Positions 7,823-26,733 of a stretch of 57,324 bases of DNA are shown in pieces (position 1 is the first letter of the stretch; each line of letters opens with the position of its first letter). The position numbers and the translations under genes are program-made. The DNA is from a virus. Lineage: Duplodnaviria > Heunggongvirae > Uroviricota > Caudoviricetes. The notes beneath the pieces were generated by a model. It was not told where the DNA came from and did not search any database. It was given only the letters and a program-made list of their open reading frames with translations. The stretch lies in the IMG/VR virus record IMGVR_UViG_2778261526_000005; one strand, 5' to 3'.

Positions 7823-8901
7823 CAGAACGGGTCCTCCTGTACTCTGGCTTTTTTCTTTTTCCGCGCACCGGGATCTTCGGGTTCAGGCAGATAAGCATCA
7901 GGTGGGCCGACACGGATTTCCGTCAGGGTGCCGTTCTGGTCCTGAGTAAATGTGACTTCCGAAACAAGCAGTTCGGTATTGTCGAAACCACAGACCGGAT
8001 CAAAGACAATCACCCGCTGGTTGGGCTGCCACAGCGTACCGTTACCCTGTCGCCAGCCCTGCACCACATAGGTGGTTTCATCCGTCCGCGCCGCCCGTTG
8101 TCGGGCTTCAAAGTCCGCACGGGCAATACAGCCTGCCCCCGTAGCCTGCCCTGTCTGCCTGATATACATCGGACGGTAACGGGCAATAAATGCGTCCTCT
8201 GTGCGGGCCCGCAGCGCGGTGGTGGTGGCCTCACCGAAATCATCGTCGTTTCCGGCACGCTGCCCCGCCACCTGGTAAACAGAAAATCGCTCCCGGATAC
8301 TCTTCTCCGTATCGCAGGAAAGGATGTTTTCCCCGAGTACCAGCGCAGTATGTGCCCGCGTTGAGCCAATACCGCCAATCACCAGCCTGCCGTGCGGGTC
8401 GTCGTAAGCCAGTGCCTGCTGCTGACCGAGTATTTTGTTGATTACCTCAATCACCGTTTCACCGTGATCAGGCTGAACATCAGGAATAACACCCGACGGC
8501 GCACCGCTGTTCACCACCTCAATGCCGAAAGGCGCAGCAAGCGCCTGCGCAATCTGCACCAGCGAGCGTCCGTTAAACTGTGTCGGTTCGGCTGCACAGT
8601 CAATCAGGTCAGCCGTCAGACTACGTCCGGCAATACCGGTGCTGACCGAACGGGCATCGTAACGAACGGGAGTCGCCTCCACCCAGCCGGTGATCACCAG
8701 CTCATCACCAATCAGCACTTCCACTTTTGAACCGTTTTTAATGCGCGGCTGAAGCGTGGTGATACCCTCATCTCCCGGCCACTGGCGAGTGATCTCCACA
8801 CTGAAATCCCGCGCCAGCCGTTCAATACCGGCACCGATGCGCACCGATGTCCAGCCATTCCACTCCCGGCCATTTACCCGTAGCGTGACATTGTCGTTCA
8901 T
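7822..8901 (-). CDS. Tail/baseplate hub protein, Mu gp44 (P) / P2 gpD-like
   Basis: Position after DNA-circulation protein; size about 360 aa. Confidence 0.65.
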   Translation of the reverse strand: MNDNVTLRVNGREWNGWTSVRIGAGIERLARDFSVEITRQWPGDEGITTLQPRIKNGSKVEVLIGDELVITGWVEATPVRYDARSVSTGIAGRSLTADLIDCAAEPTQFNGRSLVQIAQALAAPFGIEVVNSGAPSGVIPDVQPDHGETVIEVINKILGQQQALAYDDPHGRLVIGGIGSTRAHTALVLGENILSCDTEKSIRERFSVYQVAGQRAGNDDDFGEATTTALRARTEDAFIARYRPMYIRQTGQATGAGCIARADFEARQRAARTDETTYVVQGWRQGNGTLWQPNQRVIVFDPVCGFDNTELLVSEVTFTQDQNGTLTEIRVGPPDAYLPEPEDPGARKKKKARVQEDPF

Positions 8902-10226
8902 TGCACTGGCACCTTCAGAGGGATCACCGGCACAAAGCCGGGATGCGTAATGGCATTACGCCGGATAATGTCCGCGTCACGCGCCGCGTTATCAAACCAG
9001 GTCGCCGCCAGCACCAGCGCGGGTAAAACCTCATCCGGCGTGCGCTGAATGATCCGTGCAGACTGTTCAAGGCGCGTGTTGATATCCGCATTCAGATCTG
9101 CTTTCACCCGGCGCAGCGCCAGAAACAGCGCATCACTGGTTGTACGGGACAACTCCTTATCAATTGCCGTATTCAGTGTGTCGCGAATGTCGGTCAGTTC
9201 TTCCCACGTTGGCAGGTCAACCGTGTTTTTCACCGCCGGTGCATTGTTCAGTGCCGGATGCGTGACAGAAGGCCAGCCTGTGCTCTGCGCGGGTGTTGTT
9301 GACTGCCCCACTGTGGCATTCTGCATCACCGCGGAAGTTGTGGGCGCAGGCAATCGTGTGACGGCATACGCCGCTTCGCTGATTGCGGTCGTACGAAGGG
9401 TGCTGGCAACCACGTTACGCTGCTGCGTCGCCGTGGCGGTGGTTTTACTGTCCGTTTTCCAGACGCCGCGCGGTTGCAGATCGCTGCCGAGGCTGACACC
9501 GGAAAGCGTTTTGATCATGGTGACCAGGTCGCTGGCGTTACCATAAAGGCGTTTCCCGGTACGCCACATTTTCTGCACCTGCTCAACGAAATTTTTGCCT
9601 GACGATGGCGGCGGCAGAAGTACCGAGATATCCCCCTGCAACAGCCTGGCGGCATCCGATACGGCAGAATCCACCACTTTCATCGCATCAGAAACATACC
9701 CAAGCATTGTGCTGGCATTACCGACGACGTCGTTCTGCACAAAATCTGCCACGCCATCGATACTGAAACCACTGAAGCTGTCACTGATGCAGTCATCCAG
9801 TGTAGAACAGGATGACATCAGCGTCTGCGCCGTCGCCGCACCTGAAGTGGGGTAAGAGAGTTCTCCCGCTTCGACAAACTTCAGGTCAAAGCGGACAATA
9901 CGCCCTTCACTCTTCGATGTGCTGACCCGAACTTCCCCGTCAACACAGACTTTCAGCTCACCGTAAGTCGGATGGACAAGCGTGCCGGGACCGGGTTTAT
10001 TCAGCGCGTCAATCAGGCGATCGCGCTGGTCAAAGCAGTCATCTCCCACCACATAAGCTGTGATGGACGGGCGGAAAGTGATTTTCCCCAGGTCTTCGGT
10101 ATAGGGTTTGTCGCGGTTCGGGTATTCGTGCGTTTCCACACGACGACCGGTTCCCGCACTTTCTTCTTCAACCTTAAATGGCACACCGCGAAATGACGCG
10201 TCCTGAAGTCTGTCTTTCCACGTCAT
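8898..10226 (-). CDS. DNA circulation protein (Mu N/gp43-like); start placed at internal MTWKD Met
   Basis: N-terminal MTWKDRLQDASFRGVPF; GGAG RBS before the internal ATG; the upstream part of the track ORF overlaps a terminator hairpin. Confidence 0.65.
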   Translation of the reverse strand: MTWKDRLQDASFRGVPFKVEEESAGTGRRVETHEYPNRDKPYTEDLGKITFRPSITAYVVGDDCFDQRDRLIDALNKPGPGTLVHPTYGELKVCVDGEVRVSTSKSEGRIVRFDLKFVEAGELSYPTSGAATAQTLMSSCSTLDDCISDSFSGFSIDGVADFVQNDVVGNASTMLGYVSDAMKVVDSAVSDAARLLQGDISVLLPPPSSGKNFVEQVQKMWRTGKRLYGNASDLVTMIKTLSGVSLGSDLQPRGVWKTDSKTTATATQQRNVVASTLRTTAISEAAYAVTRLPAPTTSAVMQNATVGQSTTPAQSTGWPSVTHPALNNAPAVKNTVDLPTWEELTDIRDTLNTAIDKELSRTTSDALFLALRRVKADLNADINTRLEQSARIIQRTPDEVLPALVLAATWFDNAARDADIIRRNAITHPGFVPVIPLKVPVQ

Positions 10227-18475: not shown

Positions 18476-19658
18476 CGGAGGGTTTCGTGGTCATGTTCAT
18501 CGGTGTGAGATAGACATCACCACCGGGACGCGGATTCATATCTTCCAGGTCGCGGCAGTCATTGGGAGAGTAAATTCCCCAGTTGATCCCGGTGGCGTAG
18601 GCTTCAAAACGGGACTTCATATCCCCGCGCAGTAACGCCCCGGCGTTAAATTTGGCGTAATAAACGCCCTGCTTACTTTTTCGTACCAGTCCGGTGTTGA
18701 TCCGCTGTTCGATGCGGGTCAGATACGGCACCAGTGAATAGTTGATAAATCCCAGCCCCAGCTCTTCGATATTGTTGAAGGTGGCGCGATCGGTGTTCTG
18801 CACCATGTGCAACGGCACCCGGAACAGACGACAGATTTCTTCAAGCTGAAACTTGCGGGTTTCCAGGAACTGGCTGTCCTCGGCGTTCAGCGCCATCGAC
18901 TTCCAGTCCAGCCCCATCTCAAGGATCATCGGGCGGTGAGCATTGCCAAGCCCGGTGTGACGCTCCTCAAAATCTTTCTTCAGGCGCTCGTAAGCCTGAT
19001 CTGACAGCGTCTGCTCTGTACGCAACACACCCGACGTCACCGCACCATTGCTGAACAGTCTGGCCCCGTGCTCTTCGGTCGCTGCCGCCAGCGATATTGC
19101 CTCGCGGGCATAGGCGACGGGATTCAGCCCCACCAGTCCGTCCAGCGTCAGCGTGCGCACATGCCAGATATCCTCCTGGCTCAGTACATCCGTGGAGCCA
19201 TCCGGGAATGTGACCTGATAGACCGGCTCCCAGCTACTGTTAAGCTTCGGTACCACACAGCCGGGATCGACGGGCAGCAGTTCAGCCACTTCGCCAAATG
19301 CTTTCACTTTGTAGGCGTAAAAGTTTCCCCGCAGGCACAGACAGGTGACCACCAGCTCCCAGAACTCCTGCGGCGTCATATAGCCATTGGGATGCGTGGA
19401 GATCAGCTTATGCAGACGTTCGCCAGTGGCTCTCTGCTTCAGGCTGCCGTTCAGGTGATACAGGTTGCAGGGCAACATCCCGACCGACTCCGCCAGCACC
19501 CTGACACAGGAAAAAACCGCCGTCAGTCGCATGGCCCGCTGGCTGCTGATCTGCTTTCCGGTATAGGTGTCGTAGGACAACCCGATAGCATCCGCCAGCT
19601 CTGCTGGCGTGGTCACCGGTGCGTCACTTTTTCGTTGAAATAATCCCGAAAAGAACAC
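18417..19658 (-). CDS. Portal protein, HK97 family
   Basis: 413 aa, position after terminase. Confidence 0.85.
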   Translation of the reverse strand: MFFSGLFQRKSDAPVTTPAELADAIGLSYDTYTGKQISSQRAMRLTAVFSCVRVLAESVGMLPCNLYHLNGSLKQRATGERLHKLISTHPNGYMTPQEFWELVVTCLCLRGNFYAYKVKAFGEVAELLPVDPGCVVPKLNSSWEPVYQVTFPDGSTDVLSQEDIWHVRTLTLDGLVGLNPVAYAREAISLAAATEEHGARLFSNGAVTSGVLRTEQTLSDQAYERLKKDFEERHTGLGNAHRPMILEMGLDWKSMALNAEDSQFLETRKFQLEEICRLFRVPLHMVQNTDRATFNNIEELGLGFINYSLVPYLTRIEQRINTGLVRKSKQGVYYAKFNAGALLRGDMKSRFEAYATGINWGIYSPNDCRDLEDMNPRPGGDVYLTPMNMTTKPSDGSKAGKQKDNANADETTS

Positions 19659-19840
19659 TATTTACCTCCGCCGACAGACGACTGTGTACGGTCGAGATAT
19701 CGCGCCACCAGCCACGACCAGAACAGGCACAACGCCCCGGCAACAACAAACCCCGCCGGGGGATAAATCAGCCAGGCACCATACGCCAGCAAAAGCGCCC
19801 CCAGTACGCCCACCAGAGGCGCGAGAATCAGCATGATCAT
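19658..19840 (-). CDS. Small 2-TM membrane protein between terminase and portal
   Basis: Hydrophobic 60-aa ORF with GAGG RBS. Confidence 0.35.
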
Positions 19841-19851
19841 AATTACCTCAG

Positions 19852-21585
19852 TTAAAGCGAGCGGATCCCATAGAACTCAATGTGGTCAGACAGCGTGTCT
19901 TCTTTCTCGTACAGCATGGCTCTGCCAACCGCCATAATCAGCGCAACTGCACCATCGATTTTGTTTTCCGCCTGCTCTTTGACGGGCTTCACCACATCAT
20001 CGTTACCCGGAATGGTTTTGCCGACCACGTTGCCGATACACCAGGTCATGATGGGATTGCCATCATGATGAAAGCGCCCCGATTCAATTGCCGCTTCCAG
20101 CTCTTTCATCGGGTCGGACATGTTGGTGTAGTTCTGAATGATGGTGACGGGGTTCAGGTCTTCATCAGCAAGGTCATGTGAGAGCCCGGTCGCCCCGAAG
20201 GGGTCGATGGGTGACTCACTGACCGGGCTGATTTTGTTCGCCGCTTTGGCCTCCTCAAGGATGTAGCGATAATCCACCTCCGCACCATCGGTAACGGTCA
20301 GAACGCCCATTTCCACCCATTTCTGAAAGCGTTCGGCTGTCCGACGATCTTCATTTTTCTCGACGCTGTACACCGTGTCATACGGTACCCAGAAACGCGG
20401 GGCCACACTGTAGTAATGCGTTTTACCGTCAATCTCGCGGGTATAAAGTCGCGCCATGCTGTTCATATCCAGCTTACGCGCCAGGTCAAAGGCCAGAATG
20501 CACGGCTGCCCCCCGAACTGCTCAAGGGACAGTGATTTATCCTCGCAGCTCTGCCAGCTCACCAGGTTGAAATACGCAGAACGCGCCGACACCCAGATAT
20601 TGAGGTGTTTTGTTTTAAAGACGTTTGCCAGACGGGCGTTATTTTTCGCACGCTGCTGCTGACTTAACAAAAATTCGCGATAAACCGACACGCCAATATT
20701 TGGATTGGCTTTTTCCAGCACCTGCGGGTCGGTCCAGTCGTCACCTTCATCAACGGTATAGATGATCCCGAACAGTTCATCGTTAGGCACCGAGCCGTTG
20801 AGCATCTCGATGACTTCCCGCCGCTTGTCGTAGCACGGCCCCTCAATGTTGTACCCGGCGGTGGTGATAGCCCACATCAGTGGCTGACGTCGCGCCCCCA
20901 TCCCGGTAAGCATCGTGGTGTAAAGCGCATCGGTGGCGTGCTCGTGATATTCATCCACCACAGCACAGTGGGGTGATGAACCATCACCTGGGTTGCCGAT
21001 CAGCGGTTCAAACCGCGCGCCATCCTCCGGACGGTTCATGTTTGAGGCGTTAACCTCAATCCCGAACGCTTCCGTCAGCATGGGTGTGCGTTTACACATC
21101 AGTCGCGCCGGGCGAAAGACTTCCCACGCCTGTTTCTCTGTCGTGGCACCGGAATACACTTCCGCGCCAAACTCGTTATCACAGGCAAAACAATACAGGG
21201 CAACACCGGCAGAGATTGCTGATTTGCCGTTCTTACGGGGGATTTCGGTGTACACCTCCCGGAAGCGGCGCAACCGGGTGCCTTTATTGACCCAGCCAAA
21301 CGCACAGCAGATCACAAATAGCTGCCACGGCTCCAGCGTGATGGGCATCCGTTTGAATGCCCACTCCCCCTTGGTGTGCGGCAACAGCTGAATAAATTTC
21401 GCGGCCCGTTCAGCCAGGTCCTTGTCGAAGCGGTAACGAAACGACTTACTTTTTTCCGCCATCAGGTCATCAAGATGGCGCTGGCAGGCCTGAATCACAA
21501 ACTGGCAGGCAACAATCTTTCCGCGCACGACATCCCGGGCATACTGATTTGCAGCATTTACGTTGGGGTAAGATTTCCGGCTCAT
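19852..21585 (-). CDS. Terminase large subunit
   Basis: 577 aa, ATPase/nuclease architecture, position after small subunit. Confidence 0.9.
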
Positions 21586-22085
21586 GATTCGATAATTTTC
21601 AGAAACGGGTTAGTGGCTTTCTTCTTCCCCGCCAGGCCAATCAGACGCTGGCGGCTGCTGGGGTCGAGTCCGAGCATTGCCCCCGTACTGCTCATCTCGG
21701 ACTCCTGTTCTTTTTTGGCGGTCAGCTCCGGATTTTTGACCATACCGCCCATTGCACCGGTGATGGTGTTGCCCTGTCTGGCAATATTTTTCACGGCACG
21801 TCGCCAGAACTCGTAGGCCACGCACCACCGCTCAAGCACCGCGAGGTCAGTCACGCACAGCAGGCCCTGACCGCAGAGTTCTTTGGTTGTCAGTTGCCAC
21901 ATGATCGTGGCGAGAGGGAGATCTTCTTCAGCGAACCACTCCGGTGGCTCAACACCTTTGATGGGCGTAAAAACAGGTTCATCTTTATTCAGGGCTCGCT
22001 TGCCGGGGTTTCCGGCCAGCGCCTTGCGCGCCGTTGGCTTGGGGCGACGCCCGGAACGCCCCGCCGTTCCAGCCATATGCGGCAC
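21582..22085 (-). CDS. Terminase small subunit (P27 family)
   Basis: Overlaps large subunit start; family recalled. Confidence 0.75.
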
Positions 22086-22201
22086 TCCTGGTTAAATTTC
22101 ATTTTTCGCGGGTATAAAAAAACGATGGGGCGGGCAGTCCGGAAGACGTCAGGTCACAGAGATTTGACCCGCCCCTCCCCTCAGACAGTTGAGAATTATG
22201 A

Positions 22202-22552
22202 TCACTTTAGCCGTTCACGGGCCGTCTTCGCCTTATGGCACGGCCAGCACAGGCTCTGCAGATTGCTGTCGGCATCTGTGCCGCCATGCGCTTTAGGGAT
22301 GATGTGGTCAACGGTTTTCGCCTCACGTACCACACCAGCACGCAGACATAACTGACACAGGCCTTTGTCACGTTGCAGCACACGCACACGGATAACATCC
22401 CACTTAGAACCATAACCGCGCTGATGACGGGACTGACCTGGCTTGTATTGCTTCCAGCCTTCGCTTTTGTGGCTTTCGCAATAGCCTGACGAGTCAGTGG
22501 TGGTATGGCGGCAGCCGCGAACGCGGCAGGCTTTTGGGGTTCGTGGGGGCAT
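22202..22552 (-). CDS. HNH endonuclease (terminase-associated)
   Basis: Cys/His-rich: CRVRGC...C..H, HIIPKAHGG, CWPCH; immediately upstream of terminase. Confidence 0.85.
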   Translation of the reverse strand: MPPRTPKACRVRGCRHTTTDSSGYCESHKSEGWKQYKPGQSRHQRGYGSKWDVIRVRVLQRDKGLCQLCLRAGVVREAKTVDHIIPKAHGGTDADSNLQSLCWPCHKAKTARERLK

Positions 22553-22560
22553 AAAAACAC

Positions 22561-22588
22561 CAGTAAAAAGCCTCGCTAATGCGAGGCT
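22561..22588 (-). terminator. Intrinsic terminator after the moron membrane-protein gene
   Basis: Minus strand: agcctcgc-atta-gcgaggct followed by ttttactggtgtttt. Confidence 0.5.
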
Positions 22589-22630
22589 AATTCATAGTAA
22601 CAATTTACTCTGACAGTACCACGACTGTAG

Positions 22631-23320
22631 TTAAATCTTTGTTCGCTGATAATCAGCAGAATCAATTAAATTATACATACCATTCATATCATGCTCATAA
22701 TGATATTCAGATTCATACGAATACCCCAATATACTCTCATAAGTCAAAACGACCCGAAAATGTTCAGGCACATCTCCAGCATTTATTTTATTTTTAGGAA
22801 GTTTAATTGCGCCATTGCTACTTCTAAAAAAATGCGAGCTATATTCCCCGATAGGAGGGTCAAAAGTTAAGCTTATATTTTTCGCTGTTTTACCATCACT
22901 AAATACCGACCAATTATACTCATACTGATCACCACTTTTAACTGACCATCCCAGATTCAACATATATAGATCAGGCTTCGTTTCTTTTTCTCTTTCCAGC
23001 CTTTCTGTCATGGCTTTGATTGATTCATTTTCTAATTGCTGTTTAGAAACGGAAACCATCTCTTTATATTGTTCGACTGAGTTTTTCAACTCAGTGGCTT
23101 GTAACTTTAACGCTTCAGTATTTTGCTGTAGTTCTTTTTGTTGCTGTAAATACCCAAGCACAAGCCAAAAAAAGGCCACTGGGGAAAATGCACCAGCAAG
23201 AAAATCTCCAAACTCATTCCACGACGTCATCTGGTTCAAATCAAGAACATGGATCGTAATACCTAAGCCAAAGAAATAAACGACACTAACTAAAACACCG
23301 CACCCAAAAATTCTCATCAT
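22631..23320 (-). CDS. Moron membrane protein (2 N-terminal TM helices, coiled coil, C-terminal domain); start at MMRIF
   Basis: AT-rich gene between Rz and HNH; GGAG RBS; own promoter-like and terminator-like elements. Confidence 0.5.
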   Translation of the reverse strand: MMRIFGCGVLVSVVYFFGLGITIHVLDLNQMTSWNEFGDFLAGAFSPVAFFWLVLGYLQQQKELQQNTEALKLQATELKNSVEQYKEMVSVSKQQLENESIKAMTERLEREKETKPDLYMLNLGWSVKSGDQYEYNWSVFSDGKTAKNISLTFDPPIGEYSSHFFRSSNGAIKLPKNKINAGDVPEHFRVVLTYESILGYSYESEYHYEHDMNGMYNLIDSADYQRTKI

Positions 23321-23341
23321 TCTCTCCCCATTTGGAGAAAA

Positions 23342-23371
23342 CATTTAACAACTGTCAAATAGTCAAGGTCA
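23342..23371 (-). promoter_or_regulatory. Candidate sigma70 promoter for the moron gene
   Basis: Minus strand TTGACC-N18-TTAAAT. Confidence 0.3.
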
Positions 23372-23830
23372 ATGCAAACACTGCAACTTTACATACTCCT
23401 GCAAGTAGTTAACCTGCGCCGTTATCTTGTCGATTCCACTTCGGAGACGGTAATAATTGAGTTCAGCATCTGCTGTAAGTCTTGGACTTTCTCCATCGCC
23501 CATGCCGCTGGCTCTGGTCGTTGACTTTGCACAGGTGGCAGCGACTTGCAGGCGCTTACGCCCAGCAGAAACATCAGCACGGAGACTTTCGATAGTCGCG
23601 TTAGCATCAGCAAGCTCCTTTGTGTATCTGGCGTCAAGTTCTGCTACGTCACGTTGACGCTTCTGCATATCAGAGATGGTCGCCATAGCCGAATCTAATG
23701 CCATAGCATTCTCATCACGCTGCTTTTTGTATTCAATAGCTTTATTGTGGTAATGATTCACTGAACAGATAAAAGAACCAACGACAGAAACGAAGAAAAC
23801 AGCGATAACCAGCTTATAGCTCAACTTCAT
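23369..23830 (-). CDS. Rz: i-spanin Rz
   Basis: Close to lambda Rz as recalled (AVNHY...QRDKNA..., DVAALDA.YTKELADA). Confidence 0.85.
   Translation of the reverse strand: MKLSYKLVIAVFFVSVVGSFICSVNHYHNKAIEYKKQRDENAMALDSAMATISDMQKRQRDVAELDARYTKELADANATIESLRADVSAGRKRLQVAATCAKSTTRASGMGDGESPRLTADAELNYYRLRSGIDKITAQVNYLQEYVKLQCLH
23422..23607 (-). CDS. Rz1: o-spanin Rz1 lipoprotein embedded in Rz (+1 frame)
   Basis: Signal peptide with lipobox LGVSAC, proline-rich mature part. Confidence 0.65.
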   Translation of the reverse strand: MLTRLSKVSVLMFLLGVSACKSLPPVQSQRPEPAAWAMEKVQDLQQMLNSIITVSEVESTR

Positions 23831-24290
23831 TTACCACCCCACCAGCCTCTTTAAACCGGGCAATCAGGTCATCGATTTTATGTTCATACTGACCGTAACC
23901 CGCACCGGGTAACGACGCCCAGATATTGCTGCAACGATCGATAGCCTGACGGATATCACCGCGATCAATCATCGGTAAAGCACCACGCTCTTTAATCTGC
24001 TGTAATGCCACTGAGTCCTGGCTTTTGGGAGAGAAGTCTTTCAGCCCAAGCTGCTTGCGGTAAGCATCCCACCAGCGTGAAAGAAGTTGATAACGGCCTG
24101 CAGCTGTTGATTTGAGTTTCGGGTTTAGCATGACAAGTTTACGAGGGTGATCGGAGTAATCAGTGAACAGTTCGCCACCGACAATAACATCATAACCATG
24201 ATTTCTCGTTTTCTGCCGTCCGTTATCCGTTCCTTCTGACCATGCCACCATATCCAGGAAAGCTTTACGCTGGGAATTTAGTACCTGCAT
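23814..24290 (-). CDS. R: Endolysin, lambda R-type lytic transglycosylase
   Basis: Near-identical to lambda R as recalled (NQRKAFLDM.AWSEGTDNGRQKTRNHGYDVIVGGELFTDYSDHPRK...). Confidence 0.9.
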   Translation of the reverse strand: MQVLNSQRKAFLDMVAWSEGTDNGRQKTRNHGYDVIVGGELFTDYSDHPRKLVMLNPKLKSTAAGRYQLLSRWWDAYRKQLGLKDFSPKSQDSVALQQIKERGALPMIDRGDIRQAIDRCSNIWASLPGAGYGQYEHKIDDLIARFKEAGGVVNEVEL

Positions 24291-24293
24291 AAA

Positions 24294-24620
24294 TTACTCC
24301 TTAGAGCCACCAAACTTATTACCGATTACTCTCATTGCAGCCCCACGAATAGCATCGACCCCGATCAGCCCAACGCCGCCACCAATGGCAACAGAAAGAG
24401 ATTTAGGCCATCCGACATACTCAAGAGCGGATGCAAAAGTCAGCGTCAGAGCACCACAGAGCAAAATCTCGAGCGTTTTTCGTTTCCAGCCACCACCACC
24501 GCCAAAATAGGCAATGCGCAAGCCAGCCATAACGATCGACATAATCACTGCGCCCAGCGGTGTGTCTCCACGCCACCAGCTCTGGACCAACTCCAGCCAG
24601 GTATTTGGGTTATGAGGCAT
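24294..24620 (-). CDS. Holin (class I, three TM helices)
   Basis: 108 aa, three hydrophobic helices, directly upstream of endolysin. Confidence 0.75.
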   Translation of the reverse strand: MPHNPNTWLELVQSWWRGDTPLGAVIMSIVMAGLRIAYFGGGGGWKRKTLEILLCGALTLTFASALEYVGWPKSLSVAIGGGVGLIGVDAIRGAAMRVIGNKFGGSKE

Positions 24621-24916: not shown

Positions 24917-25858
24917 ATGAGTACAGAAAATAAGAATAAAACCAGGCGAGTGAGAGTTGGTTTTTTCACTGGTAATGGAAGCAAAAAAGATGGCACATCT
25001 GCTGCAAAACTAGCCTTTGAGCAAATGACCACAGCAGATACTGTAACTTTTCCAATAACTTACACAACAGACACCCCAAATCGAGGGTTAAAGTTAGTTA
25101 TTCTTCAAAAAGATACCACACTGCAATGTTACTTTGGTTACGTATCGTGGAGAAGGGAATGCCTACTACCGTTCATCGAGGATGCTACAGGTAGTGAGAG
25201 AACAATTCCTTTAAATGATAAAGATTCTGTAGTTGAAAGAACATATTTTATCTATTACTACGAAACGGACTTATTAGCTATGACCCTCAACCATATAGGG
25301 CCCAAAGTAAATGATCTGGCATTCATTTTGTATAACAAAACTGATTTAAAAAGCGTCACTTTTGAAGCCATTTGGAAACAAGAGAGCATGAAGGAACTGC
25401 TTGAGGACGGAAATATCCTACGTAGTTTCGATCTTATAGTTGCTGCTCCAAGAAACTTTAACAAAGCTAATTATAAGATTAAAAACCCTTTAGCTAATGA
25501 AATTATTGACATGGTTGTTGGTATGGGCGGGTCGCATCTAAGATTAAATATGCGAGGTCGGATTCGCCCGAAAAAACAAGGGTTTAACTATCTAAAAACT
25601 TCTGTCACCGATGCTATTAAGGAACTACTTGAACTTTTTCCAAAAGGTTCTGGAGGTCTAAAAATTAAAAAAATTGATGTAACAGAGCCATCCAATAGAA
25701 CGCCCAAAAGTCTACTTGACCAAGTATTGGTCAGTACAAAGACAATCATTGTCAAAAGCGGTTATCCATCCGATTCTGATATCAGAACGGCGATGATATC
25801 TGCTAAAATTGATAACGCGAACTATCTTGCACAGTATGAGCTCGCTAGCAGAGACTAA
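24917..25858 (+). CDS. Hypothetical 313-aa soluble protein, first gene of opposite-strand cassette
   Basis: AT-rich; plus strand inside minus-strand late operon; no recognised motif. Confidence 0.5.
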   Translation: MSTENKNKTRRVRVGFFTGNGSKKDGTSAAKLAFEQMTTADTVTFPITYTTDTPNRGLKLVILQKDTTLQCYFGYVSWRRECLLPFIEDATGSERTIPLNDKDSVVERTYFIYYYETDLLAMTLNHIGPKVNDLAFILYNKTDLKSVTFEAIWKQESMKELLEDGNILRSFDLIVAAPRNFNKANYKIKNPLANEIIDMVVGMGGSHLRLNMRGRIRPKKQGFNYLKTSVTDAIKELLELFPKGSGGLKIKKIDVTEPSNRTPKSLLDQVLVSTKTIIVKSGYPSDSDIRTAMISAKIDNANYLAQYELASRD

Positions 25859-25867
25859 TAACCAAGC

Positions 25868-26329
25868 ATGGAGGACACAATGAGAGAATTAGCCACTTTT
25901 CTCTGGAAATGCGTCCTCTGGATTCTGTTGACCTATGCAGCGACAAAACTGTTTAAACCGATGAAGCATGCTGACGTACTCACAACAGCGGGGGTGCTCT
26001 CGACTATATCAGGCATCCTGTTTGGTTTTGTTCTGGCTGCAATATCTATATTTAGTAGTGCAAACAGCGATAAGGAAGGAGCAATTAATGCCCTTAAGCA
26101 AAACAACGTGTTACCAACTCTGGTAAATAGATTACTTTCAACAGGGTTAACTCTCATCGTCGCATGTATATTTCCATTGATAGCGATGTTTCTACCTGAT
26201 GATGTTATTGTTGCGGGCAAACCTATTGATTTCCTGTTCATACTGTTAGGCTTATCCTCCCTTATAATTTCGCTATATACCTTCGGAAGGTGTTGGTTAG
26301 TGTTACGAAAAATCTTCCCCCACTTGTGA
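25868..26329 (+). CDS. Hypothetical 4-TM membrane protein, second gene of cassette (start likely MRELATF at 25880)
   Basis: Four hydrophobic helices; GGAGG RBS before the internal Met. Confidence 0.5.
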   Translation: MEDTMRELATFLWKCVLWILLTYAATKLFKPMKHADVLTTAGVLSTISGILFGFVLAAISIFSSANSDKEGAINALKQNNVLPTLVNRLLSTGLTLIVACIFPLIAMFLPDDVIVAGKPIDFLFILLGLSSLIISLYTFGRCWLVLRKIFPHL

Positions 26330-26364: not shown

Positions 26365-26733
26365 CTAAGCGTCCATTTCAAGGTTAACATCCAACATTGA
26401 AAGGCAACCATCAATAAATCCTTCGGCTAGTTGTATTTCTATGCGTACCAATTTTTCATCCTTTCCACGCACCTTTGCAATCTTACGCTTGGATATTCTG
26501 TATAAATAATGTGCCACAAGCAGCGAGTGCTCATCTGGCTTTTTTTGCTTTAGACGAGCAAGACAACCTTCAATAATTAATGCATCACTATCTGAACAAG
26601 CCTGACGTGTTTTGCTTGTGTAGGGAAGAAGCCCCTTAAACCCAGCAGCTATAGGCGAATAGTCTACTCCAGAACTATCACTCGCCGCCCATGCTCCCCA
26701 ACGCTCCAGAACCATCTGAATATCACGCATCAA
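26365..26733 (-). CDS. Late-gene antiterminator Q-like protein
   Basis: Position between DUF968 gene and lysis module; ERWGAWAA...DYSP resembles Q-family proteins. Confidence 0.55.
   Translation of the reverse strand: MMRDIQMVLERWGAWAASDSSGVDYSPIAAGFKGLLPYTSKTRQACSDSDALIIEGCLARLKQKKPDEHSLLVAHYLYRISKRKIAKVRGKDEKLVRIEIQLAEGFIDGCLSMLDVNLEMDA

Follow-up and report, generated by a model that had tools for sequence, protein, structure and literature searches.

A cargo gene in the late region of an Escherichia coli prophage encodes a candidate AbiC-related membrane defence protein

We have analyzed a 57,324 nt stretch of DNA from a virus of the Caudoviricetes (IMG/VR record IMGVR_UViG_2778261526_000005, hereafter the window), which contains the late region of a lambdoid, HK97-type Escherichia coli prophage on its minus strand. 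Between the genes for the spanin Rz and for an HNH endonuclease there is a small AT-rich gene (22631..23320, minus strand), which we call the cargo gene. Profile comparisons indicate that the N-terminal membrane module of its product is homologous to that of abortive infection proteins of the AbiC type (Pfam family PF16872). We consider it an evenly balanced question whether its product, related to AbiC by the membrane module, is an inner-membrane protein that acts on its own against phages by abortive infection; of the readings compared here this is the best supported one. The defence prediction and the hint of a relation to AbiC are already public for this protein. The kind of system is known; what is new here, as far as the sequences tell, is the architecture, in which a membrane module of the AbiC type is joined to another C-terminal domain.

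Homology to AbiC-type proteins

A tblastn search of plasmids with residues 27–100 of the cargo protein gives matches to genes annotated as 'putative phage abortive infection protein'. These plasmid proteins carry the PF16872 (putAbiC) domain in their C-terminal half (residues 169–262 and 224–301), and their N-termini share the motif W-G-x-FGDF-x-G-G-x3-P...YWL...Q-K-x-EL with the cargo family. When the family profile is aligned by hhalign with 35 PF16872 proteins, a probability of 94.3 and an E-value of 9.8e-8 are obtained over 49 columns, which span the end of the loop between the two transmembrane (TM) helices, the second of these helices (TM2) and the first turns of the stalk that follows it. 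Controls with reversed profiles give probabilities of 1.4–2.6. With PF16872 proteins taken singly, from plasmids of Vibrio and Cupriavidus, the probabilities are 92 and 81. The invariant or nearly invariant columns coincide in both families: W, FGDF, G, P, WL, Q and EL.

Both kinds of protein have a hairpin of two TM helices, the motif W-x-FGDF-x-x-G-x3-P...WL...Q-x-EL and a helix after TM2, and both are encoded by stand-alone single genes on mobile elements. On the other hand, their C-terminal domains are unrelated: PF16872 proteins end in a helical domain of about 80 residues, the cargo protein has a stalk of about 55 residues followed by an immunoglobulin-like (Ig-like) beta-sandwich. It is also smaller, 229 amino acids versus about 285–345.

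The AbiC system was described in 1992. Our comparison has been made on PF16872 proteins; AbiC of Lactococcus lactis (pTN20) enters it by its published description only. According to a 2026 review, this protein has two TM helices and an extra-membrane domain (PMC13064643). It is grouped with AbiP as AbiC/P: the mechanism is unknown, but major capsid protein is reduced (PMC13064643). AbiP, which is related to AbiC, needs its TM segment for the abortive infection phenotype (PMC13064643).

The FGDF two-TM module is also found at the head of 242 amino acid proteins encoded by plasmids (IncX4 and ColRNAI) from E. coli, Salmonella and Klebsiella. In both E. coli plasmids inspected the gene is preceded by one coding for 276 amino acids. 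The joining of the FGDF module to varied C-terminal domains is, to judge from these alignments, a modular use of an effector-like module. As a side observation, stop and start codons overlap in the E. coli plasmid pairs (L097:1566–3121 in IncX4, L098:1081–2636 in ColRNAI), and the 242 amino acid protein has the same FGDF N-terminal module and a different helical C-terminus. Many other plasmids of Salmonella and Klebsiella give matches to the N-terminal module only.

Published defence prediction

Table S10 of DefensePredictor (Science 2026, PMC13092281) contains 1,041 predicted, uncharacterised defence clusters. One of them, which includes WP_126677051.1, has as representative WP_000984534.1, which is exactly the cargo protein (PMC13092281). 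This cluster has a mean log-odds of 7.65, to be compared with a strict cut-off of 4, and is described as a 'putative novel defense gene' (PMC13092281). An HHblits match to the AbiC protein UniRef50_A0A807NHB6 is given in the same table, with a probability of 97.6 over 19% of the query (PMC13092281). We find that this AbiC protein carries PF16872 at residues 238–317.

The preliminary description of this DNA, made from the sequence alone, had considered the function of the cargo protein as unknown. The AbiC-type module and the DefensePredictor listing refine this statement. Searches for the accession WP_000984534.1 in the main texts of the literature gave no match. The papers on HepS and Tai proved to be unrelated.

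Architecture of the cargo protein

The longest open reading frame (ORF) of the cargo gene, counted from the first ATG, extends over 22631..23344 (minus strand) and has 237 amino acids. The start chosen by the Prokaryotic Genome Annotation Pipeline (PGAP) is at 23320 (MMRIFG...), and we read no Shine-Dalgarno sequence in front of the upstream in-frame ATG at 23344. Since the start at 23320 has a Shine-Dalgarno sequence and homologues align from the equivalent of M2, the correct length is 228 or 229 amino acids, the latter being the length given in the preliminary description. The features of the gene and its product, all on the minus strand, are the following:

22631..23320, coding sequence of the cargo gene, 229 amino acids plus stop, identical to WP_000984534.1
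23329–23322, Shine-Dalgarno sequence GGGGAGAG, separated by 1 nt from the first and by 4 nt from the second ATG of ATGATG
23243..23311, TM helix 1 (TM1), residues ~4–26, conserved face G8, S/T12, Y15, L19
23105..23248, AbiC-like module, residues 25–72, homologous to the PF16872 N-terminus by profile comparison
22979..23146, stalk helix, residues 59–114, continuous with TM2, residues 59–96 near-invariant on one face
22634..22972, predicted Ig-like beta-sandwich, residues 117–229, AlphaFold2 pLDDT (predicted local distance difference test) >95

Two hydrophobic 19-mers are found in a Kyte-Doolittle plot, at residues ~4–26 and ~40–58. AlphaFold2, run on an alignment of 63 sequences (mean pLDDT 95.2), predicts a helix at residues 2–25, a short loop, an unbroken helix at 34–114, which would include TM2 and the stalk of about 55 residues, and a beta-sandwich at 118–226. 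Both methods agree with the two N-terminal TM helices of the preliminary description. The AbiC-like module comprises the end of the periplasmic loop (SWNEFGD), TM2 (residues 40–58, positions 23147–23203) and the first stalk turns (QQxKEL). The hairpin forms the N-terminus: hydropathy and the model show neither a signal peptide nor a lipobox.

Lysine plus arginine amount to 1.2 in the ~6 N-terminal residues, to 0.65 in the loop of 14 residues and to 2.0 in the stretch of 20 residues behind TM2. Because of this distribution, the most likely topology is N-in/C-in, with the stalk and the sandwich in the cytoplasm. Conservation over stalk residues 59–112 has a period of 3.6 residues, which corresponds to one conserved helix face, as it should if helix packs against helix. 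The stalk is presumably an oligomerising coiled coil: of the coiled coil proposed earlier, the conserved face and its period are observed, while the coiling itself we infer. The stretch from N35 to about Q95 is extremely conserved, with G43, P47, G56, Q59, Q60, E63, Q74 and L78 invariant. Structure searches with the beta-sandwich only retrieve generic Ig-like sandwiches (ASF1, RhoGDI, the cytoplasmic domain of KirBac).

Cap15, a protein of the cyclic oligonucleotide-based antiphage signalling system (CBASS), has two TM helices and a beta-barrel. The model of the cargo protein resembles it in having an N-terminal two-TM hairpin and a predicted C-terminal all-beta cytoplasmic domain, which might receive a signal. 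A CBASS or Pycsar system, which would call for an adjacent cyclase/CD-NTase gene and a nucleotide-binding beta-barrel, is not what the rest suggests: there is no conserved neighbour except parE in one order, no PADLOC match and a generic Ig-like sandwich only.

The topology also bears on a different explanation: a superinfection exclusion protein like P22 SieA, T4 Imm or HK97 gp15, made in the lysogen, which would block the entry of DNA without killing the cell. A prophage protein of the inner membrane would suit this role, and the near-invariant periplasmic loop SWNEFGD could contact a conserved host component needed for entry. But only about 13 residues are predicted to be periplasmic, the variable domain, presumably the one that determines specificity, is predicted to be cytoplasmic, and neither sequence comparison nor PHROGs link the protein to known exclusion families. 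We consider this explanation very unlikely.

A conserved module and a variable domain

Conservation is very different along the protein. Mean pairwise identity across the family is 0.29 in TM1, 0.65 in the loop and TM2 and 0.67 in the proximal stalk; it is 0.24 in the distal stalk and 0.20 in the beta-sandwich. The same is found on a smaller scale in two E. coli alleles, with 37 differences in 690 nt: the 14 that fall in codons 1–116 are all synonymous, and all 11 amino acid replacements are found within residues 121–215. In 11 Rhodobacterales genomes, where the family gene is adjacent to parE, mean identity is 80% for parE, 67% for the N-terminal module of the adjacent gene and 19% for its C-terminal domain. 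That such a hypervariable gene should be translationally coupled to a housekeeping gene is puzzling.

A constrained membrane and stalk module joined to a fast-changing C-terminal domain may be what one expects when effector and sensor are fused in a protein engaged in genetic conflict. Relaxed constraint is an alternative explanation for the variability of the C-terminal domain, yet this domain is modelled by AlphaFold2 with high confidence. Antisense ORFs of 52–89 amino acids inside the cargo gene have been rejected: the 14 differences in codons 1–116 of the E. coli alleles are all synonymous in the minus-strand frame.

The cassette and its distribution

The late region has been identified from the ORF list, Pfam, PHROGs and RefSeq annotation. 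Its genes and the limits of the segment which carries the cargo gene are as follows; all genes are on the minus strand:

26365–26733, Q antiterminator
24294–24620, lambda-family holin
23814–24290, GH24 endolysin
23369–23830, Rz i-spanin, upstream flank of the cargo gene (PF03245, 3.6e-38)
23422–23637, Rz1 o-spanin ORF embedded in Rz, lipobox LLGVSAC
22553..23393, replaceable AT-rich cassette of about 840 bp, limits from similarity breaks with other E. coli prophages and phages (no strand assigned)
22202–22552, HNH endonuclease, downstream flank (PF01844, 2e-16)
21582–22085, P27-family small terminase (terS), after HNH
19852–21585, large terminase (terL)

The portal gene and the HK97-type protease and capsid genes are found past the large terminase. 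The place between Rz and the HNH and terminase genes, as well as the AT-richness, had been correctly described: GC content is 0.34–0.39 over the cargo gene versus 0.53–0.60 on the HNH and terminase side. E. coli chromosomes such as that of EC1722-1 contain this stretch of the window with 100% identity, and there PGAP labels WP_000984534.1 as a 'hypothetical protein' of 229 amino acids.

Similarity to other prophages ends at the start codon of the HNH gene (22552–22557) and eight codons before the stop of Rz (23394–23397). One of the joints is inside a coding sequence: the last eight codons of Rz (positions 23394–23371 of the window) travel with the cargo gene, so that recombination has its joint within Rz. 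The cassette is present in 12 of 5,426 complete E. coli genomes, about 2,450 of which match the Rz or the HNH flank. Those genomes with both flanks that we have examined contain other small genes as cargo between them. The junction between Rz and the HNH and terminase genes of HK97-like E. coli prophages is documented by these data as a cargo hotspot. The prophages which bear the cassette vary in their remaining cargo: for example, an OLD-like nuclease and Dcm may be found between Q and the holin instead of the pair of genes for 313 and 153 amino acids present in the window. In a collection of phage genomes, the cargo gene was found in no cultured coliphage: there are three weak matches, none of them full-length.

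Morons were reportedly defined by Hendrix and co-workers. The bor gene of lambda is a moron of the region between Rz and terminase, with an orientation opposite to that of the late operon. The cargo gene is like bor and other lambdoid morons in being an extra gene among conserved late genes, with deviant composition, a terminator and a patchy presence. It differs from bor in sequence, to which it is unrelated, and in orientation: it runs with the late operon. The moron architecture of the preliminary description is thus borne out by the presence/absence polymorphism, the composition and the downstream terminator, while for a promoter of its own there is a candidate found by eye, which our scan did not pick up. 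Likewise, the gene is 'bor-equivalent' in position, but it shows no similarity to Bor in Pfam, NCBIfam or PHROGs.

The family and its genomic contexts

A word-indexed search retrieved 116 relatives of the cargo protein. Those from Enterobacterales are 40–64% identical over their full length, distant ones from other Proteobacteria match chiefly over the N-terminal half. A profile search of 1.84 billion cluster representatives, at the 50% identity level, gave 4,444 clusters with E ≤ 1e-3 and 1,348 with E ≤ 1e-30. Nearly all of the best 150 cluster matches are full-length, and all save a few have 205–260 amino acids. Nothing significant was found in Pfam, NCBIfam or PADLOC for the cargo protein or for 63 aligned members of the family. 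In PHROGs there is a full-length match to PHROG 9267 (E 1e-42). The likeness covers the whole protein, but this is a family without functional annotation, and close relatives are absent from the cultured phages of the phage collection.

All eight enterobacterial loci analyzed (the window, Enterobacter 638, Pantoea ananatis, a JGI contig, two Citrobacter, Klebsiella quasipneumoniae and Serratia oryzae) are lambdoid prophages with the gene between Q and terminase in the orientation of the late operon. In five of them (the window, L007, L010, L092 and L093) it comes directly after Rz, with a gap of 24–56 nt; in the other three (Klebsiella, Enterobacter, Serratia) it is placed away from Rz or ahead of the holin. 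A family member in Acinetobacter is found in a Mu-like prophage, on the strand opposite to the late genes.

Contexts are mixed in the 80 loci from species-representative genomes that we have studied. No conserved partner gene was found across them, with parE in Rhodobacterales as a single-lineage exception. Immediate neighbours include ParE and HicA toxins, a resolvase, AAA ATPases and sporadic PADLOC matches: AriA, GajA-like, AbiLi, DrmD, DndE and others, all scattered. These have been counted without a background rate, and we do not claim an enrichment in defence islands; some of the 'mad8' matches may be due to the GHKL ATPase domain of parE. In Rhodobacterales the family gene follows parE, which codes for subunit B of topoisomerase IV, and stop and start codons overlap in most genomes (loci L008, L030, L041, L052, L055, L060, L066, L070, L073, L079, L088 and L090, with the gene at about 7900–8680).

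These contexts, together with the position of the cassette, lead to a second explanation: a lysogenic conversion gene analogous to bor or lom, which would benefit the host in a way unrelated to phages (envelope stress, colonisation, serum resistance). It would agree with the lambda bor slot, the deviant GC content, the terminator and the membrane location, and also with the chromosomal relatives found among housekeeping genes, such as those beside parE in Rhodobacterales. Against it, Pfam and NCBIfam show no similarity to Bor, Lom or virulence families, signal peptide and lipobox are lacking, and most of the protein is predicted to lie in the cytoplasm. The sole detectable homology is to abortive infection proteins, and the rapid turnover of the C-terminal domain points to genetic conflict. 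A conversion gene of this kind seems distinctly unlikely to us.

Transcription of the cargo gene

Two signals were considered, both on the minus strand:

22559..22588, intrinsic terminator, GCCUCGC-AUUA-GCGAGGC followed by a U-run, 42 nt past the stop of the cargo gene and 17 nt before the HNH start
23343..23372, candidate promoter found by eye, TTGACC (23372–23367, over the Rz stop), 18 nt spacer and TTAAAT (23348–23343)

The terminator claimed in the preliminary description is well supported: a stem of 8 bp with six GC pairs (22588..22569), followed by UUUUU, folds with z = -3.07 versus shuffled sequences. We also note that the prophage of strain T309.Ta3, with other cargo between Rz and HNH, has the same stem (GCCTCGC/GCGAGGC) upstream of HNH (L002:1660–1700), with its 4 nt loop inverted relative to that of the window (ATTA versus TAAT). 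Because a nearly identical stem accompanies other cargo, the terminator may be a property of the slot as much as of the cargo gene.

The promoter-like element of the preliminary description has not fared so well. A scan with the sigma-70 consensus found no promoter upstream of the cargo gene on the coding strand, and the four promoter-like sites of the region are to be compared with 3.4 expected by chance from shuffled sequences. There are 24–48 nt between the stop of Rz and the start codon of the cargo gene. The candidate found by eye has a poor -10 (TTAAAT), without the A at -11. Two further TTGAC hexamers are found at 23366–23361 and 23358–23353, which makes three in all across 23372–23353. 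An arrangement like TTGACN-18/19-TTAAT is present in two of three divergent homologous loci; this comparative pattern is only suggestive of a promoter, and the first hexamer is partly dictated by the conserved C-terminal codons of Rz.

In all eight enterobacterial prophage contexts the gene points the same way as the Q-dependent late operon, so that late transcription is the only expression implied by gene order. By analogy with lambda, polymerase modified by Q would transcribe the cargo gene during lytic growth, pass the terminator and go on to HNH and terminase.

This is the basis of a third explanation, that of an accessory protein of the prophage's own lytic cycle, expressed late by Q-antiterminated read-through and not in the lysogen: it might act in late superinfection exclusion or modulate the timing of lysis as a partner of holin or spanin. 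Co-orientation in 8/8 prophages, the position 24–56 nt behind Rz in 5/8 and the lack of a convincing own promoter in the scan all fit this explanation. Class II holins share the topology of a two-TM N-in/C-in hairpin. Three of 63 family members have weak matches to Phage_holin_1 (E ≥ 0.007), and the coiled coil gives a weak match to the Rz-like phrog_739 (E 0.09). We have rejected a holin or spanin identity, as these matches are at chance level. The preliminary description had named homology to a structural or lysis protein as a reason to abandon it: none has been detected in Pfam or PHROGs.

Other data do not agree with a lytic role. Most members of the family are found outside phages, the gene is away from Rz or before the holin in the Klebsiella, Enterobacter and Serratia prophages, and it is opposite to the late genes in the Mu-like prophage of Acinetobacter. 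It is dispensable for lysis, considering the cassette-free genomes among the approximately 2,450 with either flank and the examined prophages with both flanks. The window already has a full set of holin, endolysin, Rz and Rz1, and a hypervariable cytoplasmic domain is not expected in a regulator of lysis. We therefore regard the lytic-cycle explanation as unlikely.

Possible role in defence

We come back to the AbiC-related defence protein as the best supported reading. In its favour we have observed the architecture itself, the homology of the module to AbiC-type proteins, a conserved module joined to a hypervariable C-terminal domain, the nature of the cassette and the absence of a partner gene. 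The distribution is that of a mobile and sporadic gene: it is present in 12 of 5,426 E. coli genomes, in prophages, and in unrelated neighbourhoods elsewhere.

A mechanism may be suggested. The protein, made in the lysogen, would be inserted in the inner membrane by its helical hairpin, with N-in/C-in topology and with TM2 running into a long stalk helix that would hold the Ig-like beta-sandwich in the cytoplasm. The fast-evolving sandwich might recognise a product of the infecting phage, and the binding signal would be passed by the conserved stalk to the conserved TM2/TM1 module. This module could then oligomerise and compromise the membrane, by loss of the proton-motive force or by premature lysis: the infected cell would yield no phage.

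Several facts weigh against a role in defence. An abortive infection phenotype, in which the phage is blocked once its DNA has entered and capsid protein is reduced, is putative for the family as a whole; for the cargo protein a role in defence is predicted by machine learning. WP_000984534.1 is outside the 94 transcription units which were tested for DefensePredictor, 45% of which were validated (PMC13092281). The inputs of this method include GC content and neighbouring genes (PMC13092281), and the score is thus tied to some degree to the moron signature. The name 'AbiC-like' carries little mechanistic content, because the mechanism of AbiC is itself unknown. No PADLOC, Pfam or NCBIfam model matches the cargo protein, and the PF16872 domain is absent at E ≤ 1 from it and from the 63 family members. 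The wider neighbours outside Enterobacterales are mostly housekeeping genes, and a translationally coupled place behind parE across a whole order is unusual for a defence gene. No credible promoter for expression in the lysogen was found by the scan. In enterobacterial prophages the gene always runs with the late operon, as it would equally do if it served the lytic cycle of the phage itself.

A broader proposal is rather doubtful, but it should be mentioned. The FGDF hairpin and the proximal stalk might be a widespread and portable membrane 'executioner' module, common to AbiC-type proteins, to the 242 amino acid proteins of small plasmids and to this family of more than 4,000 clusters. Here it would be fused to a diversifying Ig-like domain which binds phage proteins, thus forming a one-protein immune receptor, sensor and effector in one, of an undescribed kind. 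Such receptors would occur in Proteobacteria and, here and there, in genomes of other phyla; in Rhodobacterales they would occupy a fixed 'immune slot' with translational coupling to parE.

If the defence role is true, a function would be available for a very large orphan family, with 4,444 clusters and no Pfam model, and the conserved N-terminal hairpin of AbiC would be a reusable membrane module, able to work with different C-terminal domains. The contrast between the near-invariant TM2 and stalk and the hypervariable Ig-like domain makes the mapping of the trigger and domain swaps straightforward. Without such a role, the cargo gene is an ordinary accessory gene of a prophage.

Other features of the late region

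No RNA family of Rfam is found within 22000–24000. A 60 amino acid hydrophobic ORF, YmfR-like by RefSeq annotation, is found at 19658–19840 (minus strand) between the large terminase and portal genes, and overlaps the ends of both by a few bases.

A second AT-rich cassette (24917–26329, plus strand, GC 0.35–0.44) is located between Q and the holin, with an orientation opposite to that of the late genes. It codes for WP_001446998.1 (313 amino acids, PHROG 7651) and WP_001208502.1 (153 amino acids with several TM helices, PHROG 8552). Neither protein has a match in Pfam or PADLOC, and neither is listed in the DefensePredictor tables that we have examined. The second cassette occurs in 73 of the 5,426 E. 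coli genomes. Elsewhere the same slot contains an OLD-like ATP-dependent nuclease and Dcm (strain WP4-S18), or DUF6731 and a 144 amino acid gene (locus L010). This slot seems to be another cargo hotspot, and the two genes which the window has there are a candidate defence system.

Related prophages carry further genes of this type. In Serratia oryzae a HicAB pair and a SieB-family gene (L091:1504–2037, 8883–9517) are found in addition to the homologue of the cargo gene, and the Enterobacter 638 prophage with a cargo homologue also has a HicAB pair (L005:4635–5297). In both prophages, this accessory or defence-type cargo occupies the same slots of the late region.

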